In this document: positions 609-63,264 of the stretch, one piece after another
How positions within the stretch are numbered: the first letter of the stretch is position 1
Layout: every line of letters begins with the position of its first letter
Made by a program: the position numbers and the translations under genes
The notes under the pieces: generated by a model
Told to the model about the DNA's origin: nothing
Databases searched by the model: none
Seen by the model: the letters and a program-made list of their open reading frames with translations, nothing else
DNA from: a virus
Lineage: Duplodnaviria; Caudoviricetes
DNA: 64,000 nt
Direction: 5' to 3' (one strand)
Virus record (IMG/VR): IMGVR_UViG_3300017700_000449
Location: 6,470-70,469 of that record

Positions 609-1550
609 TCAGGTGAAGCCCTTGATCACAGCGCGAGACACGCACCGACAGTTGATCAGCTCGCCGGGGTGGATCCACTGCTTGACGTCGGGGTCGTACC
701 AACCCTTCGAGACTTCATAGGGCTTGCCGCTGTTCGCCTTGTGCGTAGGGCGGGGGTGCTTGCCGCCTCCCGAGTGAACCCACAGCGCGGTGGTGATCCC
801 GAGCTCCTCCTGCCGCGCGCGGTTCATGGCCGACGTCGCCTTGTTGTTCTGGTCGCGCGCGATCAGTTGGGCCCGTCGCTTCGTGACGCCGAAGTTCTTC
901 TCCAGGGACTTCGCGAGCGGCCCGAGGTCGCGGCCGGCCTTGACCGACTGCATGACCTGGACCTCGACGTTCTTCAGGTACTGCTGCGGGATGGATTTGA
1001 TCAGGGCGACGTTCTCGCCGATCGTCGCGTTCAGCACGTCCCGCATGGCGGGCGTCATCTTGAACTCGACCGTGAAGCCGCCCTTTTTGAGTATCCGTTT
1101 CATCTGCGCGTCGGACCGCTTGTGCGCGGCCTTGGCGAAGAACTTGGCCATGTCCTCGGCCGCGCCGTCGAAGGCCTTCAGCCAGCGCTTGGCGAGCCGC
1201 CTGATCGCGAGCGTGAGGATGTTCGCCGGCATGTCATCCATCGCCAGCATCGCCTCAACGTCGGCGACAAGATCGTTCCAGGAGATCACCTCCCCCGACG
1301 ACGAGACAAACCGCTTGCTGCCGTTCGGCGGCCTGACCGAAGGATCCTCGAACAAGTCGACCGCGGCGAAGATCTCAGGCGTCGCGTCCATCGCCATGAT
1401 CGGGGTGTTCTGTCGGTACGACGCCTCCAGCCAGTACGTCACCGATTTGTTCATCTCGGCGACCAGCTTCGTCAGCCGGCGGCGGTACTCGACCTCGAGC
1501 CCGGCGTTCGGCCTGACCGGGGCCAGAGTGACCGTCTTCGGCTTCTTCAT
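609..1550 (-). CDS. phage head morphogenesis protein (MuF / SPP1 gp7-like)
   Basis: RAQLIARDQNNKAT, WVHSGGGKHPRPTH and HPGELINCRC motifs typical of MuF; lies downstream of portal. Confidence 0.9.
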   Translation of the reverse strand: MKKPKTVTLAPVRPNAGLEVEYRRRLTKLVAEMNKSVTYWLEASYRQNTPIMAMDATPEIFAAVDLFEDPSVRPPNGSKRFVSSSGEVISWNDLVADVEAMLAMDDMPANILTLAIRRLAKRWLKAFDGAAEDMAKFFAKAAHKRSDAQMKRILKKGGFTVEFKMTPAMRDVLNATIGENVALIKSIPQQYLKNVEVQVMQSVKAGRDLGPLAKSLEKNFGVTKRRAQLIARDQNNKATSAMNRARQEELGITTALWVHSGGGKHPRPTHKANSGKPYEVSKGWYDPDVKQWIHPGELINCRCVSRAVIKGFT

Positions 1551-2278: not shown

Positions 2279-2482
2279 TCAGTCCTCCAGGTCGCTGTAG
2301 TCTTCCTCGTAGGCGTCGGGCGGGACGATGTTCGGGCCCGTCTCCTCGTCGTCCTCTCCCACCTCGTTCAGGCCGTCCTCGCCCATGCCGGGGGGAGGGG
2401 CGTCCTCGGTTCGCTCGGCGAAACCCGCGAGGACCTCCTCGTCGGTCGGGACGCCTTCCTGTTTCTTCTTAGAGCCGGCCAA
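2279..2482 (-). CDS. small very acidic protein (67 aa)
   Basis: TTG start overlapping the portal-ART 3' end with GGAGG upstream; D/E-rich. Confidence 0.55.
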   Translation of the reverse strand: MAGSKKKQEGVPTDEEVLAGFAERTEDAPPPGMGEDGLNEVGEDDEETGPNIVPPDAYEEDYSDLED

Positions 2483-5400
2483 AGTTCACCTCCTCCAGGA
2501 CGATCTTGTTGTCCTTGTTCGAGACCACCTTGAAGCGCGTGCCGGCCTTGAACAGGACCTCGGCCTCGCTCGGATAGTGCGACAGCTTCGAGATGTCCCG
2601 GCCCGTCTTGCCCTTCACCTCGAACCGCGTGTTGCCTCCGAAGCCGGACGCAGTGCTGGTGCTCGTGAACCCGCGCTCCTCGATGATCATGCCGGGCTTA
2701 TACATCGCGACTTGTTCGGGCGATAGCGTCGCCCCGCGGCGGGTGACGCCCTCGTACTTCGGCATAGTTTCGAGCGCCTGGTTGAGCGAGGCGGCGAACT
2801 TGTACTGCTCCTCGGTCATCAGGCCGGCGCGCAGCTGCTTGTTTACCTCTCGATAGTACGAGCCGCTGTAGGCCATGACCTGCGCGGCGCCGCCGGGGGT
2901 CATCTTGTCGTAGGCCTTGCCGAGGGTCTTCAGCTTCTTGGCCGCGGTATTGATCAGGGCCGTCGCGTTGCCGCTGAGGATCCCGTTCAGCGCCTCGTAG
3001 TGTTCCTTGGCCTCGGGGCTGTTCAGGGACTGCTCGAAGTCGGCCGCCTCCTGCTTCGCCTTGGCCTCGGCGATCTTCTGCGACTCGCTGGCCGCGTTGG
3101 CCTGCTTGACGTAGTTCTCCGAGACCTCGAAGTTCTTCTCGACCGTCTTGTGGTGCGACTTCGCGATCGCGGCCTTCTCCGCCGGCGTGAGCAGGTTGTT
3201 CGCGGTGGCCGCGGTGCCGCCCATCTGAGCGACTGCCTTGATCTTCTCCTTGGCGATCGTCTCCGGGTTCTTCATCGCCTCAGCGCTGAAGCCCTTGGTG
3301 TTTTCGTTGAACTTGTCGAAGATTGACTTGATGTGCGTGGCCGCGGCGTCGTTCTTTGATGCGGCGACGGTCGCGGCCATGCCCGGGTTTTCCTTCAGGG
3401 CTTGCTCGGCGACCTTGGCCGTGACGGACTTCTCGGCCTTATCGTTTTTCTCGTTCTCCTTGATCGCCGGGGCGGTGGCCGAAACGTGCTCAGGGTCTAG
3501 CTTCAGATCCTTCTGCTGCTTCGTCGCGTTGTCGAACAGCTTCTCCAGCTGCTTCTTCGCTTTGTCGTCGCCCGCGGCCGCGGCGGCGTTGAAATCGTCG
3601 GACAGCTTGTTCTTCACCGCGGCGAGGGCGTGGAACAGATGGGTCTTCAGCGCGGTCTTCTGCACCTCGCCCAGGCCGTTCGCGTCGGCGCCGTCGATCA
3701 GCTTCTTCAGCATGTTCCGATAGTGAGTGCCGGACTTCGGCGCCTTGCCGAGGTAGTAGGCGGCGGTGGCCTGGAAGTCGGCCTTGTCGCCCTTGCCGGT
3801 CTCCTTCCACAGGCCGCCGAACGCGGAGACGGCCTTCTTCGTCGCCTCGCCGGCCTTGGCCTCGCCGGAGCTGCTCGACCCGCCGCCCGAGCCGAACTTG
3901 CCGTCCGGCGCGCGCGGGTGCTTCGACTCGTCCCACTTCGCCTCGTCCAGCGCTACCCGGTCAGGCGCGCCTGAGACGAGAAAAGGGACCACGCCGTCCT
4001 TCGCCGGCGCGTCCTTCCCGGCAGGAGGGTTCTTCGGGGCTTTGCCGTTGGCGGGCGGCGTGTTCTCGCCGTCGTCGCCCTCGTCGTCACCTTCGCCGCC
4101 CATCATGGGATCTTCCGGCGGTTCGGGGACGTCCTCGACGTCGATCGAGGTGTAGCCCATCTCCGGGTCGTCGGCGATGCGCCGGCGCTCCTCGAGCGGA
4201 TCCAACACGCCGCCGTCGATCAAGATCTGCCCGGTCTCGGCCTCGATCTTCTTGACCTCGGCGCGCTCCTTGTCGGACAGCGACCACAGCGGCTCGAAGG
4301 AGAACGTGATCTCGGGGTCGACCTCGTTGAACAGCGAGAGCTGGATCGCGTCGATCACCACCTTCAGCGGATCTCGGAAGATGTTCTCCTGAGCCGCGCC
4401 GATGAAGTCGTAGAAGATCCTGACCTCGGCCTCGGACGAGGCGTTCAGGCCCTTCGGCTGCAGCCCAAGGAGGATGGCCACCGGGATCGACGACACCGAC
4501 GCCATCTGCTCCTGAGCCTGCGCCTGGAGAGCGTCGAGGGTGCCGAGCGGCGTCGAGATGTTGAAGAACTCCTCTGTGTCCTTGTCCAGGACCATCGAGC
4601 CGCTGTTCGTGCGGATCAGGTTGAACAGCTCCATCCGGTCGATGATGCCGCCGTCTCCGCCCTCGCCGGCGCCCGCCTGGAGGGTCGACGCCATGTTCGT
4701 GTAGACGCCGCTGACCGAGAACGACTCGATCAGGTCGCAGACCGCCTGTCGCGTGCGCAGCCAGTTGTCGACGTAGGGCTTCGCCATCTGCGTCATGGCG
4801 AGACCGCCGAACGCGTAGGCGGGCTTCAGGATGTCCGGGACCTCGCGCCCGACCATCGTCAGGAACCGCGAGCAGTGGACCGGCGTCGCCATGACGTACC
4901 AGATCGACGGCTTGTACCAGTCGGGGGCGAGGGGGTTGGTCGAGTTGTACTGCTGCGGGTAGGCCCACATCGGCTCGACGTTGCGCACCGCGCGCAGCTC
5001 GAAGCGGGAGTTCACCTTCTGCTTGCTGACGCGACCGTTGAAGCTGATCGGCGTGACAAGCTCGGTGCTGTCGACCTTCTCGTCCTTGCGTCCGACGTCG
5101 AGGAAGATGTGGCCGCGGCCGAAGCCGCCGTCGTGCTCGGCCGCCACGCGGAAGGCGTCGCGGACCTTCAGCTCGGTCATCCGCTTCCAGATGTCCTTGA
5201 TCTTCGCGCCCTTGGCCTCGGCGCGGGCTTTCTTCTCCGCGTCGTCCAGCTCGCCGTCGACGTCGGACGTGACCTCGAGCTTGATCCACTTGCGGGTCAT
5301 CTCGGTCGCGACGCGCTCGACGATCTTGCGATACTCGGGGCGCTGCGTCAGCTCGGCGAGGTACGGGTAGCCGAGGAACGTCGTCCCTTCCGCGAACTGC

Positions 5401-5732
5401 GTCCCGCCTCCCCAGGCCCAACTGTTCAGCGCGTCGAAGCCGCCTTCGACGTTCTCGTACATCTCGTCCATGGCCAGCTTCTGGCCTTTGGGGAGGACGC
5501 CCGGCGCCGGCTGGAACGGGGTGAAGACGCTGACGCGCTGCTGCTGGTCGGTCTTGCGCTGGATCTTGCGCTTTGCGGCCGACAGCGTCTTGCTGCCGAT
5601 GTTCATCGGCGCTTTGGCTTTGGCGGTCGGCTCCTCGGCCACCGGCTGCTCGCCTCCGTCGAGGTAGGTGGTGATCCCCTTCAGGATCTCCTTGGTGGGG
5701 TCGCTCGCGCGCTTGGTGCGGTTGACCGTCAT
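2469..5732 (-). CDS. portal protein (DUF1073 / anti-CBASS Acb1-annotated family type) fused to a C-terminal ADP-ribosyltransferase domain
   Basis: N-half has GYPYLAELTQRPEYRKIVE..EMTRKW, SSIPVAILLGLQPKGLNASSE, FSFEPLW; C-terminus has YSGSYYREVNKQLR..RRG..GFTSTS..PSEAEVLFKAGTRFKV (R-STS-ExE); follows TerL. Confidence 0.9.
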   Translation of the reverse strand: MTVNRTKRASDPTKEILKGITTYLDGGEQPVAEEPTAKAKAPMNIGSKTLSAAKRKIQRKTDQQQRVSVFTPFQPAPGVLPKGQKLAMDEMYENVEGGFDALNSWAWGGGTQFAEGTTFLGYPYLAELTQRPEYRKIVERVATEMTRKWIKLEVTSDVDGELDDAEKKARAEAKGAKIKDIWKRMTELKVRDAFRVAAEHDGGFGRGHIFLDVGRKDEKVDSTELVTPISFNGRVSKQKVNSRFELRAVRNVEPMWAYPQQYNSTNPLAPDWYKPSIWYVMATPVHCSRFLTMVGREVPDILKPAYAFGGLAMTQMAKPYVDNWLRTRQAVCDLIESFSVSGVYTNMASTLQAGAGEGGDGGIIDRMELFNLIRTNSGSMVLDKDTEEFFNISTPLGTLDALQAQAQEQMASVSSIPVAILLGLQPKGLNASSEAEVRIFYDFIGAAQENIFRDPLKVVIDAIQLSLFNEVDPEITFSFEPLWSLSDKERAEVKKIEAETGQILIDGGVLDPLEERRRIADDPEMGYTSIDVEDVPEPPEDPMMGGEGDDEGDDGENTPPANGKAPKNPPAGKDAPAKDGVVPFLVSGAPDRVALDEAKWDESKHPRAPDGKFGSGGGSSSSGEAKAGEATKKAVSAFGGLWKETGKGDKADFQATAAYYLGKAPKSGTHYRNMLKKLIDGADANGLGEVQKTALKTHLFHALAAVKNKLSDDFNAAAAAGDDKAKKQLEKLFDNATKQQKDLKLDPEHVSATAPAIKENEKNDKAEKSVTAKVAEQALKENPGMAATVAASKNDAAATHIKSIFDKFNENTKGFSAEAMKNPETIAKEKIKAVAQMGGTAATANNLLTPAEKAAIAKSHHKTVEKNFEVSENYVKQANAASESQKIAEAKAKQEAADFEQSLNSPEAKEHYEALNGILSGNATALINTAAKKLKTLGKAYDKMTPGGAAQVMAYSGSYYREVNKQLRAGLMTEEQYKFAASLNQALETMPKYEGVTRRGATLSPEQVAMYKPGMIIEERGFTSTSTASGFGGNTRFEVKGKTGRDISKLSHYPSEAEVLFKAGTRFKVVSNKDNKIVLEEVNFGRL

Positions 5733-7060
5733 GACGCGCGCCGCCGGCCCATGGCGCGAGCTCGCAGGAGGACTGAACTGTTGACCTTCATCGGGAGCCT
5801 CGCGTGAGATTTGTGTTCGACAGCGAGCGCCAGCGACATGACGCAGTCGTCGTGGAACCCTTCCGGCGCGGAATATCGCACACCGGTCCTCGTATATTCA
5901 AACTCGAACTGCTCAAGCTCTTGCCTGATCGGTCCGTCGGGGAAGCCGACCTCGCCCTTCTGGATGGCGACGGCGAGGCCTTCCATCAGCCGCTGCTTGG
6001 ACGCCGCGGTGGTGGTGTAGCCCTCGTAGCGAGAGCCGGGGGTGTCTTTCTGCAGGCGTTCCAGCACGGGATCGCCAACGCCGTTTTCTTCGACGAGCGC
6101 CGGGGTTGTCTTCACGACTCCCGCGACGCCCTTGTAGATCGACTCCCAGGAGGGAGCGCCGCCGCCCGATCGGAAGAACCGACAGACGCGCCCGTAGAGG
6201 TCCAGGCCGGTCGCGACGGTGTAGTCGAGCTTGCGCGCGACGTCGATGCCGAACACGACGGGCTGCGATTCGACGATGGCGGGGAGGACGCACTTCTTGA
6301 TGTGCTGCAGGCCGAACGGGTTTCCGCCGTCGTCGGACGGCTCGGCCAGATACAGTTCCCTGAACACCGCCTCGGGTAGGAGGCGCTCGGCGTCGTCGAT
6401 CTCCTCTTGGTCGAGGACGCCCGCGGCGACGGCGTCGATCGCGGTGATCTTGTGGAAGCCGATCGACGGGTCGTCGCCTTTCTCGCCCTTGCGCGCGATC
6501 TGGTAGAACCAGTTCTTGCGGCCCTTCACGTTGCCGATCAGGCGGATCTGTCCGCGCGTGGCGGTCAGGGTCGAGCGCACGGCCCACCAGGCAGGCTCCT
6601 TGACGCGGGAGGCCTCGTCGATCACCGCGGCGTGCACGTCCTCGCCGTAGAGGCTGTCGGGCTTGTCGGCGGACTTGAACCAGATGATCGCGCCGTTGAT
6701 CAGCGTGATCGTCTTCAGCGTGAGGTTCGCGGTACCGACGTCGGGCGGGATCGCGCGCAGGCAGCGGCGGAAGGCGATGTCGGCCTGTCCGGACACCGGA
6801 GCGACCCACCAGAAGTTCTGACCCTCCCGGCCGTACAGCGCCTTCTCGAAGATCCACGCGATGCAGCCGGCTGTCTTGCCGGCCTTGGTCGAGGCCTCGA
6901 TGGCGGAGTAGCGCTTCGGGTCGAAGATCGCCGCCATCTGCTTCGGGTAGAGGTGCGGCCGCTCGTATTCGAGCAGGTAGTCGTCGATGTCGATCTCGGC
7001 GCCGACGGATCCGAACTCGGGCGGGCGCTCAATCTCGTCAACGACTTCCTCGGTCAGCAT
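5729..7060 (-). CDS. terL: terminase large subunit
   Basis: Walker A STKAGKT, Walker B AVIDEAS, nuclease motifs FGIDVARKLDYT and HDDCVMSLALA; start chosen at ATG 7060. Confidence 0.92.
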   Translation of the reverse strand: MLTEEVVDEIERPPEFGSVGAEIDIDDYLLEYERPHLYPKQMAAIFDPKRYSAIEASTKAGKTAGCIAWIFEKALYGREGQNFWWVAPVSGQADIAFRRCLRAIPPDVGTANLTLKTITLINGAIIWFKSADKPDSLYGEDVHAAVIDEASRVKEPAWWAVRSTLTATRGQIRLIGNVKGRKNWFYQIARKGEKGDDPSIGFHKITAIDAVAAGVLDQEEIDDAERLLPEAVFRELYLAEPSDDGGNPFGLQHIKKCVLPAIVESQPVVFGIDVARKLDYTVATGLDLYGRVCRFFRSGGGAPSWESIYKGVAGVVKTTPALVEENGVGDPVLERLQKDTPGSRYEGYTTTAASKQRLMEGLAVAIQKGEVGFPDGPIRQELEQFEFEYTRTGVRYSAPEGFHDDCVMSLALAVEHKSHARLPMKVNSSVLLRARAMGRRRAS

Positions 7061-7515
7061 ACACCTATCTCCCGCTCGGAAAGACGACGCATCCAACGGC
7101 GCTTAGGTTCGGTGTTCTTCGCAGGACTTCGCGGGCGGGACGGTCTGTTCCATTCTTCGCCCCTCGTTGACCCCATCTCGACAAAGCCCGCAGCTCTCAG
7201 GGACACGCCCGGTTCTTCTGGCAAAGTGTAGGTCCACGCTTCGTCGTAGCCGAGGGCCTTGGCTGCTCGGCACAGAGCGCCGTACAGCATCGAGCATGCG
7301 TTCGGGCTTCCTGTCGTCGCCACCCTGTCGATGACGATGCGCCCTGATCCTTGCCAAGCCCGGCTCGGGTTTCCTGCTATGGCTACGCCGACGCAGACAC
7401 CGTCGTCGTCGACCACTTTCGCCGCGAACAAGCCCCCGACCACGACAGGGAGGTGGCGATGCCACAGTTTCACCTGGAGCGCGGCGGCCGAAACGGTGCA
7501 GGGCGCAACACGCAT
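7054..7515 (-). CDS. XF1762-family / Mom-like GNAT-fold DNA modification protein
   Basis: WHRHLP..VGVAIAGNP..IDRVATTG..NACSMLYGA..RAAKALGY..TYTL..E.GVSLRAAGF pattern. Confidence 0.7.
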   Translation of the reverse strand: MRVAPCTVSAAALQVKLWHRHLPVVVGGLFAAKVVDDDGVCVGVAIAGNPSRAWQGSGRIVIDRVATTGSPNACSMLYGALCRAAKALGYDEAWTYTLPEEPGVSLRAAGFVEMGSTRGEEWNRPSRPRSPAKNTEPKRRWMRRLSEREIGVC

Positions 7516-62172: not shown

Positions 62173-63264
62173 TCAGATGCCGATCATCGAGACGATCGCG
62201 ATCGGCATGCGGATGATGGTGCCCCACGTGCCGCCGGTGATCTTCTGCTTGTAGCTCGACAGGTCGGCGATCAGGCGGTGCATGCGCATCTTTTCGTTGA
62301 ACGCCGCGAATCCGGTCTGCTGGCCCTCGATCTCGGTGGCGATCAGCTGCATGAAGTTGCCGCCGACGACGCCCTGCGGGTTCGAGAGGGACTGAACACC
62401 GTACTGGACCGCGTCGACGATGCGGATGTTCGGGAAGTTCTCCTTCAGGAGCTTGTAGACGTTCAGGCCGAAGCTGTTGGTCTGGTTCAGCGCGACCTTC
62501 GAGCCCGGGGAGAGCGCCAGCACCATCTTCGTGTCGTTGTTGACCAGGCCGCCCGACTGCTGGACGAGCTGGTAAACGAGCGCGAGGATGTCGCTGTAGA
62601 TCTCGTTCGCGGTCGCCACGACCACGCCGTTGTTGTTCACCCACGCGTTGCCGCCACCGGCTTTAGGAGCCGGGGTCAGAGCCGCCTGCAGCGTCGGGTC
62701 GTTCAGGATGCCGTAGTTCTGGAGGCCCTGCACGCCGAAGAAGTAGGTCGAGTTCTGGTAGCGGTTCATGATCGTGGCGGCGGACTTGTTCAGCTCCGTC
62801 ACCCAATTGATCTTCGCCACGCCCGCGCGGTCGAGCTCGAGGTCGCCGTACTCCTCGATCGTCTGATAGAGGTATGCCTGGCGCTGCGGCCAGTTGGCGT
62901 TAACGGTGACGTGGCCGTTGTTGTTGAAGTCACCGTAGCTGGAGACCTCGCCGGCGTGTTCGATCACGCCGAACATCGCGGTCTGGTCGGTCCAGTCGCC
63001 CTTTTTCTGCTCGCCGAAGATCTCGGCCGCCTTCGTCGGCGTGAACAGGATCTCGAACACCTGCGGGTCGATCATGGTCGTGAGGAACGCGGGGATGCCC
63101 GAGTTCGGCGCGGTCATGAGCTGAGGCTGGGCGTCCATCGCGATCGCGGCGTTCCGCGCGTAGCCGTCCGGGATGTACTGCTGCACGTCCGGAAAGATCG
63201 CGCCGAGCGCCTCGAACTGGTGGCGGTCCGAACCCCACTGCGAGATAGCTTCTTGAAGGTTCAT
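62173..63264 (-). CDS. major capsid protein (DUF2184-like)
   Basis: AMDAQP, KKGDW, E..GEVSSYGD, YFFGV.GLQNYG.LNDP, GTWGTIIRMP. Confidence 0.92.
   Translation of the reverse strand: MNLQEAISQWGSDRHQFEALGAIFPDVQQYIPDGYARNAAIAMDAQPQLMTAPNSGIPAFLTTMIDPQVFEILFTPTKAAEIFGEQKKGDWTDQTAMFGVIEHAGEVSSYGDFNNNGHVTVNANWPQRQAYLYQTIEEYGDLELDRAGVAKINWVTELNKSAATIMNRYQNSTYFFGVQGLQNYGILNDPTLQAALTPAPKAGGGNAWVNNNGVVVATANEIYSDILALVYQLVQQSGGLVNNDTKMVLALSPGSKVALNQTNSFGLNVYKLLKENFPNIRIVDAVQYGVQSLSNPQGVVGGNFMQLIATEIEGQQTGFAAFNEKMRMHRLIADLSSYKQKITGGTWGTIIRMPIAIVSMIGI

Follow-up and report, generated by a model that had tools for sequence, protein, structure and literature searches.

The portal-ART gene

We analyzed a 64,000-nucleotide (nt) stretch of phage DNA (the window), which comprises positions 6,470 to 70,469 of the IMG/VR virus record IMGVR_UViG_3300017700_000449 (Caudoviricetes), and concentrated on one minus-strand gene whose product is a phage portal protein that carries an ADP-ribosyltransferase (ART) at its C-terminus. 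The window, which is not a prophage region, represents most of a complete virus record of 70,469 bp with 123-bp direct terminal repeats. The genome is that of an uncultured myovirus: genes for the sheath, the hub of the baseplate, and the major capsid protein are all present. On the minus strand the order of genes is the terminase large subunit (TerL), portal-ART, four small open reading frames (ORFs), MuF, several unassigned genes, a GNAT acetyltransferase, a Nudix-DUF2213 protease, and the capsid genes (Table 1).

The ATG of the portal-ART gene overlaps the stop codon of TerL as ATGA. GC content at third codon positions (GC3) is between 0.86 and 0.97 in all 100-codon blocks of the gene, which indicates a single coding frame along its whole length. 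From the N-terminus, the order of segments in the product is a PF06381 portal domain, an acidic and proline-containing linker, the conserved VALDEA-KWDESKHPRAPDGKFG junction motif, two helical bundles, and the C-terminal ART with its R-S-ExE residues. A previous reading of this DNA made from the letters alone (the sequence-only reading) had described an uninterrupted ORF of 1087 amino acids with a portal in its N-terminal half, an acidic/Pro linker, the stretch ALDEAKWDESKHPRAPDGKFG, an Ala/Lys-rich helical region, and an ART domain with catalytic R, STS, and ExE. All of these elements were recovered. The frame is continuous with uniform GC3, the linker and the quoted stretch (residues 594–614) were verified by translation, and the helical region resolves into two confidently predicted bundles at residues ~649–937; the evidence for the portal and the ART is given below.

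We considered whether the fusion is an artefact of assembly or gene calling that merged two separate genes. In addition to the continuous frame and uniform GC3, the genome is complete with terminal repeats and a full-length homologue with 74% identity occurs on another virus contig (L003). A search with the whole protein found 999 long relatives. Among the best 120 of these, which come from many samples, 109 end in a homologous ART that is nearly always at the extreme C-terminus. Thus, more than 100 independent metagenomic portals share this architecture and an artefact, which the sequence-only reading had named as one way in which its interpretation could fail, is effectively refuted.

Table 1. 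Features of the portal-ART locus and of other head genes of the phage. Positions are those of the window unless indicated; coordinates of the catalytic codons were verified by translation.
Feature	Residues	Position	Strand	Basis
Small acidic ORF, 67 amino acids, isoelectric point (pI) 4.05		2279..2482	-	TTG start six bases after GAGGAGG Shine-Dalgarno
Whole portal-cargo gene	1087 + stop	2469..5732	-	single ORF
Portal domain PF06381 (Phage_portal_3/DUF1073)	123-500	4233..5366	-	Pfam 248.4 bits (cut-off 33.8), E 1e-73
Candidate maturation site LAMDE near portal N-terminus	86-90	5463..5477	-	motif scan
Acidic/Pro/Gly-rich linker	546-596	3945..4097	-	translation; pI 4.1 for residues 540-604
Candidate portal/cargo border site VALD	593-596	3945-3956	-	verified by translation
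Junction motif VALDEAKWDESKHPRAPDGKFGSGGG: candidate A-L-D protease site, then [FW]xExxHPRxxxG[KQ]F core	593-618	3879..3956	-
Two basic Ala/Lys-rich helical bundles	~649-751 and ~770-937	2898..3815	-	AlphaFold2, predicted local distance difference test (pLDDT) 85-86
R-S-ExE ART domain	946-1087	2472..2897	-	PF03496, PF01129; 6dre_B/6drh_B
Catalytic Arg R999, second R of TRRG	999	2736..2738	-	R in 220/221 homologous ART domains
S1024, first Ser of STS	1024	2661..2663	-	S in 220/221 homologous ART domains
ExE, E1056-A-E1058 in SEAEVL	1056-1058	2559..2567	-	E in 218/221 and 221/221 homologous ART domains
TerL		5729..7096	-	phrog_2, Terminase_6N; directly upstream of portal-ART, translationally coupled
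MuF head protein, 313 amino acids, PF04233, without toxin domain; two A-M-D sites		609..1550	-	profile match
A-[ML]-D stretch inside the MuF gene		1380-1400	-	motif scan
Major capsid protein; IAMDA at 63130-63144	IAMDA: 41-45	62173..63264	-	phrog_264; motif verified by translation
Nudix + DUF2213 (PF09979, phrog_2229) head maturation protease		G000:C1:779-2707, outside the window	-

The portal domain and the position of its C-terminus

In addition to its match to PF06381, the N-terminal part of the protein matches the portal family phrog_146 (E 6e-99). It scored 86 bits against a cut-off of 196 for NCBIfam TIGR01555 (the HI1409 family, a hypothetical equivalog), and is therefore related to that family but not a member of it. 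The gene is also placed among head genes, with the coupled TerL gene upstream and MuF and other head genes downstream. The closest solved portals are gp19 of E217 and of Pa193 (E 7e-33 to 1e-32), and this homology together with the family matches bears out the portal assignment of the sequence-only reading. As a separate observation, one relative (P0027) has a Hint_2 (intein-like) domain at residues 493–581, within its portal domain.

The E217 and Pa193 portals are 765 amino acids long and have been modelled for residues 94/97–528. In both, a helical barrel at the C-terminus extends into the interior of the head, and no density was observed for residues 529–765 (PMC10329688, PMC11456595). The gp18 portal of PB1 (L041:1112-3421, P0290) has a C-terminal InPase domain (PF18823, residues 639–757, E 2e-43), which falls within the span that is without density in E217 and Pa193. 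Thus, cultured relatives already bear C-terminal cargo on the inward-facing end of the portal. With its cargo on the portal C-terminus, and with the equivalent end of E217 and Pa193 gp19 pointing inward, the ART of this phage should by homology be inside the capsid. Portals are dodecamers, which would give twelve copies of the cargo.

The C-terminal ADP-ribosyltransferase domain

The C-terminal region scored above the Pfam cut-offs for both PF03496 (ADPrib_exo_Tox; 37.7 bits, cut-off 23.4) and PF01129 (ART; 34.2 bits, cut-off 22.3), with the matches spanning residues ~938–1080. When the C-terminal 193 residues were compared with solved structures, they matched the Tre1-type chains 6dre_B and 6drh_B (E 1e-15) with the R, STS, and ExE residues in register; the next sequence matches were XopAI, Vis, ExoS/T, and SpvB. 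An AlphaFold2 model of residues 590–1087 had a mean pLDDT of 86.4. The end of the linker (residues 590–597), which is the only part of the linker that was folded, had a pLDDT below 50. In a Foldseek search with this model the best matches were again 6drh_B and 6dre_B (E 3e-10 for 6drh_B, target template modelling (TM) score 0.81–0.83, root-mean-square deviation 2.3–2.9 Å, 28% identity). There were 108 PDB chains at E ≤0.001 and, among the matches listed, all were ARTs. The ART fold is thus recovered by structure prediction, which the sequence-only reading had proposed as a check.

Each catalytic residue is conserved in no fewer than 218 of the 221 homologous ART domains that we collected, and from this conservation the enzyme looks active. 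The ExE subclass of ARTs is arginine-specific. As a member of this subclass, the phage ART should modify arginine. It is the only ART in the whole genome. No peptidase domain, including a zincin-like MPTase, was found within the portal-ART protein at Pfam E ≤1.

Relatives of the portal and their cargo

Because scoring with the whole protein is biased toward relatives with an ART, we also scored the portal part alone, which recovered long portals (597 amino acids or more) with various cargo. When re-ranked by portal BLAST score, 63 of the comparable top 119 portals have the ART. Other cargo on the same portal family includes Nudix, InPase, topoisomerase IB (TopoIB), a Zeta-toxin-like kinase, a histidine phosphatase, ddrB-ParB, GNAT, and the anti-CBASS (cyclic-oligonucleotide-based antiphage signaling system) protein Acb1. 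Some portals carry several modules, as in P0102 (portal-Acb1-Nudix-ART), P0171 (portal-Acb1-...-ART), and P0144 (portal-GNAT-...-ART), with up to three copies of the HPR core described below. In a FastTree phylogeny of 173 portal domains, the presence of the ART requires at least 39 changes compared with a mean of 49 after shuffling. The cargo is thus very mobile relative to the portal, with the caveat that gene truncation may account for some of the short rows.

Among near relatives, by contrast, the ART is the constant last module and it is the modules inserted before it that vary. The sequence-only reading had proposed a survey for variable C-terminal domains on the same portal, as in a polymorphic system. 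That idea holds in part: other cargo does occur on relatives, but in the nearest ones the C-terminal domain itself is constant.

The portal-ART architecture is abundant in metagenomes, and portal-fused cargo as a whole accounts for hundreds of metagenomic clusters with ART, Nudix, Acb1, TopoIB, and InPase. The ART domain alone matched 3271 representative clusters at E ≤0.001, including stand-alone proteins of 300–550 amino acids. No record in INPHARED covers more than 46% of the protein, and those that match do so over the portal part only, such that no cultured phage in this set has this ART cargo. When bacterial genomes were searched with this one protein, two distant portals were the only matches.

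Candidate cleavage sites in head proteins

The Nudix-DUF2213 protease has an N-terminal Nudix domain with an AMDRA site on each side. These two sites resemble the VALDEA at the start of the junction motif, just before its HPR core, and we therefore examined the pattern A-[ML]-D across the proteome. It occurs eight times in four head proteins (2405 amino acids) where shuffled sequences predict 1.7, and 11 times in the other 82 predicted proteins where 10.1 are expected (binomial P 0.001). With Q also allowed at the middle position (A[MLQ]D), the head proteins have 12 occurrences compared with 2.3 expected (P 6e-5). The A-[ML]-D sites are at residues 41–45 of the capsid protein, residues 86–90 of the portal, both flanks of the Nudix domain, the C-terminal region of the protease, and the portal/cargo border (residues 593–597). 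These are candidate sites, placed where maturation cuts are expected.

A similar arrangement was observed in relatives. Of 123 related portals, 114 contain an A[MLQ]D tripeptide within the 80 residues that precede the RPEYR landmark. In the portal of PB1, VAMDS occupies residues 73–77 and EALDD lies between the barrel and the InPase domain. In Pa193, the first 93 residues of the portal are absent from both the density and the liquid chromatography–mass spectrometry data (PMC11456595). The capsid proteins of PB1 (gp24, L041) and Pa193 have SAMDS at residues 61–65; the deposited E217 capsid chain starts at N66, two residues after the A-M-D tripeptide, and it has been suggested that the first 65 residues of the E217 capsid protein may be cleaved (PMC10329688). 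These sequence patterns make A-[ML]-D a candidate for the code that DUF2213 prohead proteases recognize. In the literature that we searched on capsid-targeting motifs and DUF2213 cleavage sites, neither this motif nor the junction motif is described.

The junction motif

The junction motif has a consensus of about 25 residues, (A)x-D-[ED]-A-x-[FW]-x-E-x-x-H-P-R-x(2-5)-G-[KQ]-F-x-x-G-x-G-G, and we refer to the part around His-Pro-Arg as the HPR core. Related portals have between zero and three HPR cores, each at the start of a cargo module. In P0002, the closest relative (74% identity), two copies bracket an extra module. The core is also found in 15 stand-alone ART homologues, where it lies 17–75 residues from the N-terminus. 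The Nudix...protease polyprotein of one relative (L015:12751-15219, plus strand) has an HPR core at about residue 560, between the Nudix and the protease, which shows that the junction motif is not restricted to portals. A search of the literature for the HPR core as a string of letters returned only unrelated acronyms, and a search for related loci with one stand-alone HPR-ART protein (P0136) as the query found none.

Proposed role of the portal-fused ART

We think that the protein is probably a portal precursor with a head-internal effector that is released by the prohead protease and leaves with the DNA. According to this idea, a portal fold (residues ~1–545) is followed by the acidic linker, the junction motif, the basic helical module, and a Tre1-like arginine-specific mono-ADP-ribosyltransferase. 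Since portal C-termini face the capsid interior, the ~52-kDa cargo would be built into the procapsid, with each portal subunit contributing one copy and twelve at most in all. The Nudix-fused DUF2213-type prohead protease would most likely cut at A-[ML]-D sites, including VALD at the portal/cargo border, and this would free the cargo with a new N-terminus that bears KWDESKHPR...GKF. The freed ART would exit with the DNA at infection and ADP-ribosylate arginines of host proteins, serving either takeover of the cell or counter-defence. In relatives, the presence of Acb1, Nudix, and GNAT before the same ART fits with an early counter-defence cargo. A literature model also backs packaged effectors of this kind (PMC9503650, PMC5512222). 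The sequence-only reading had likewise proposed about 12 copies per virion that could be split off and ejected at infection; the fusion and the ART fold on which it built are confirmed, and these later steps are inferences. Specific predictions from the locus are that the protein is cut close to D596, that a Tre1-like ART of ~52 kDa exists in free form, and that this ART has a small acidic partner.

The gene lies in a late operon and is translationally coupled to TerL, which would also suit an ART that works in the producing cell at a late stage, either ahead of assembly or in the course of it and within the uncleaved precursor, with the portal fusion providing only timing and dosage. There is precedent for ARTs that are not packaged in ModA and ModB of T4 (PMC5512222). 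We consider this improbable because the ART is attached where a structural protein faces inward, an arrangement that recurs in hundreds of phages and argues for packaging, and because the stand-alone homologues retain the junction motif.

The region between the junction motif and the ART is relevant to a second alternative, in which the cargo remains covalently attached to the portal without ever being ejected, the helical module binds or organizes the end of the packaged DNA in the manner of the P22/E217 portal barrel, and the ART acts only in the procapsid or on packaging partners such as the terminase or DNA. The Ala/Lys-rich region (residues ~649–937) contains 19% Ala and 15% Lys and has a pI of 9.1. 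This is the helical region of the sequence-only reading, and its bundles are conserved partly among relatives. Searches of residues 640–945 against Pfam, PHROGs, and NCBIfam returned nothing specific. Structural comparisons gave scores of no more than 0.78 in the ESM Atlas, only E values above 0.25 in BFVD with Foldseek, and Z scores of 8.6 or less in VIA, where the matches were generic helical bundles that covered the first bundle and barely tested the second. A basic (pI 9.3) and helical cargo would be consistent with this alternative. In E217 the portal barrel contacts DNA and the longer C-terminal tail may be invisible rather than cleaved (PMC10329688, PMC11456595), and an action on the packaging apparatus was raised as an alternative by others (PMC9503650). 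However, neither NAD+ nor protein targets are expected in a filled capsid, and an ExE ART of the arginine type that has kept its catalytic residues needs both. Acb1, Nudix, and TopoIB, which occupy the same position in relatives, make sense only in the host cytoplasm, and there is a candidate protease site at the portal/cargo border. Therefore, we regard tethering as unlikely and favor release of the ART into the host.

A small acidic ORF follows the portal-ART gene and overlaps its stop codon by 14 nt. Across this phage and its relatives, acidic ORFs of 66–84 amino acids (pI 4.1–4.4) start at or overlap the stop of ART-bearing portals (in relatives at L003:10755-10958, L004:5342-5596, and L007:11209-11409), and a PGMxxGxLNxV stretch is common to those of this phage, L003, L004/L005, and L007, although the sample is small with three to four independent loci. 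In cargo-less relatives, it is mostly the MuF gene that follows, ~20–35 nt after the portal. The acidic ORF had no match to known families. It could be an inhibitor or a chaperone of the basic cargo, and it is a candidate partner of the ART. We also asked whether the four small downstream ORFs are conserved immunity genes and rejected this, since tblastn recovered only the first three and only in the closest relative. The second of these also had a weak tblastn match in one further locus, and the motif shared by the first (acidic) ORF surfaced only on direct alignment.

An acidic ORF in this position raises the alternative that the ART is a polymorphic antibacterial toxin like the MuF toxins, which is released at lysis or serves a lysogen, with the acidic ORF encoding its immunity protein. 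The closest solved structure is that of Tre1, an antibacterial toxin of a type VI secretion system (T6SS), the characterized MuF-ART Bxa has adjoining small immunity genes (PMC11699363), and the acidic ORF is conserved after ART-bearing portals. By contrast, we found neither a tyrosine integrase nor a serine recombinase in the complete genome and there is no sign of a temperate lifestyle. The complete genome also contains no ADP-ribosylhydrolase (ARH, PF03747) or macro domain, the MuF gene is separate and toxin-free, and in near relatives the ART is a constant terminal module rather than a variable tip. We give little credence to a toxin with this function; the lack of integrase, resolvase, ARH, and macro domain fits better with a lytic takeover enzyme than with a toxin/immunity pair.

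Several points weigh against the idea that the ART is released from the portal and injected. The A-[ML]-D pattern was defined after its instances had been seen, which makes the statistics above partly circular. The strict A[MLQ]D tripeptide is found ≤14 residues upstream of only 35 of 174 HPR cores (2.3% in background windows) and P0002 lacks it at its first junction. The HPR core was rejected as a general tag of the head proteins of this phage because it occurs only once in the genome. The helical module has no assigned role, as its structural matches are generic only, and at 28% identity to Tre1 the target of the ART cannot be inferred.

A broader version of this proposal is that portals of the PF06381 family are polyprotein cargo racks. 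The DUF2213 protease would cut A-[MLQ]-D sites at the N-termini of the portal and capsid proteins and at every junction ahead of an HPR core, freeing twelve copies of each effector (ART, Nudix, Acb1, InPase, TopoIB, and others). Each freed effector would bear the HPR core at its new N-terminus, and the core could serve there as a shared signal for retention or ejection. In the cell that produces the phage, the acidic ORF would chaperone or inhibit the basic cargo. This is possible, although on balance we lean against it in this general form. If true, such portals would represent a general route for loading capsids that is unlike both the capsid-targeting sequence/scaffold-core route of T4 and carriage on MuF.

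Other genes of the head module

Apart from the portal, the Nudix-protease is a second enzyme fused to a head protein in the same phage genome. The GNAT acetyltransferase gene (phrog_3810, phrog_1249; L002:2494-2934, minus strand, outside the window) lies in the head module between MuF and the protease and may encode another packaged enzyme. Upstream of TerL, a 153-amino-acid ORF (window 7054-7515, minus strand) overlaps the start of TerL and matches phrog_1384, annotated as a 'Mom-like DNA modification protein' (E 3e-21). It occupies the expected place of the small terminase subunit.

Comparison with known systems

To our knowledge, head-packaged enzymes are the first move of a phage on entry and few besides T4 Alt have been studied experimentally. 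Although real, the portal-ART arrangement is widespread in metagenomes and has been reported before. Iyer et al. (2022; PMC9503650) described fusions in which the portal or MuF carries an ART, Nudix, or 2H domain and predicted that these are packaged in the head and injected. The polyvalent-protein concept was set out by Iyer et al. (2017; PMC5512222). The carriage on the portal instead of on MuF that the sequence-only reading inferred is therefore not new. As in those studies, we find an enzyme fused to a head protein in the terminase-portal cluster of a myovirus, the group in which such effectors are enriched, and predict that it is packaged and injected. Those studies are computational only, and the junction motif, the A-[ML]-D sites, and the acidic ORF are not in them. 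In addition, R-S-E (Alt/VIP2-type) ARTs were said to be absent from genuine polyvalent proteins (PMC5512222), and the zincin-like peptidase is absent here, the phage having a separate DUF2213 protease gene instead of an internal peptidase. What we add are three leads: a candidate A-[ML]-D code, the HPR core at the junctions, and an acidic ORF that may be a partner of the cargo.

The best match in both sequence and fold is Tre1, a T6SS effector of Serratia proteamaculans (PDB 6dre, 6drh), which has the same R, STS, and ExE residues. Tre1 is delivered by PAAR and the T6SS and has the ARH-type immunity protein Tri1, whereas the phage has no PAAR domain and no ARH gene. The substrate of Tre1 is arginine on FtsZ.

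Among characterized systems, T4 Alt and the MuF-ART Bxa (PMC11699363) come closest. Like the proposed cargo, Alt is a head-packaged ART of the R-S-E type; it undergoes trimming by the prohead protease and enters the host along with the DNA (PMC5512222). Alt, however, is a free protein that is loaded by means of an N-terminal capsid-targeting sequence and is cut by gp21 at LxE, whereas here the ART is covalently joined to the portal within one precursor and the phage protease belongs to another family (DUF2213). The MuF polymorphic toxins (Jamet et al., 2017, PMC5576092; Bxa, PMC11699363) likewise place an arginine-specific ART on a head-assembly protein beside the portal gene with small ORFs after it. 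They differ in that the carrier here is the portal, with MuF encoded by a separate gene, and in that the phage shows no sign of lysogeny and has no ARH immunity gene.

The portals of the Pbunavirus group (PB1 gp18 and gp19 of E217 and Pa193; PDB 8fvh, 9b41) share the PF06381 domain and come from myoviruses of 65–70 kb with a DUF2213-type protease. They are ~765 amino acids long and also have C-terminal cargo after a linker that contains an A-L-D tripeptide, but this cargo is an InPase (PF18823) rather than an ART and there is no HPR core. Because the PB1-like Pseudomonas phages are cultured, have cryo-electron microscopy structures, and carry this InPase tail on their portal, they offer a laboratory system in which the same question can be asked.

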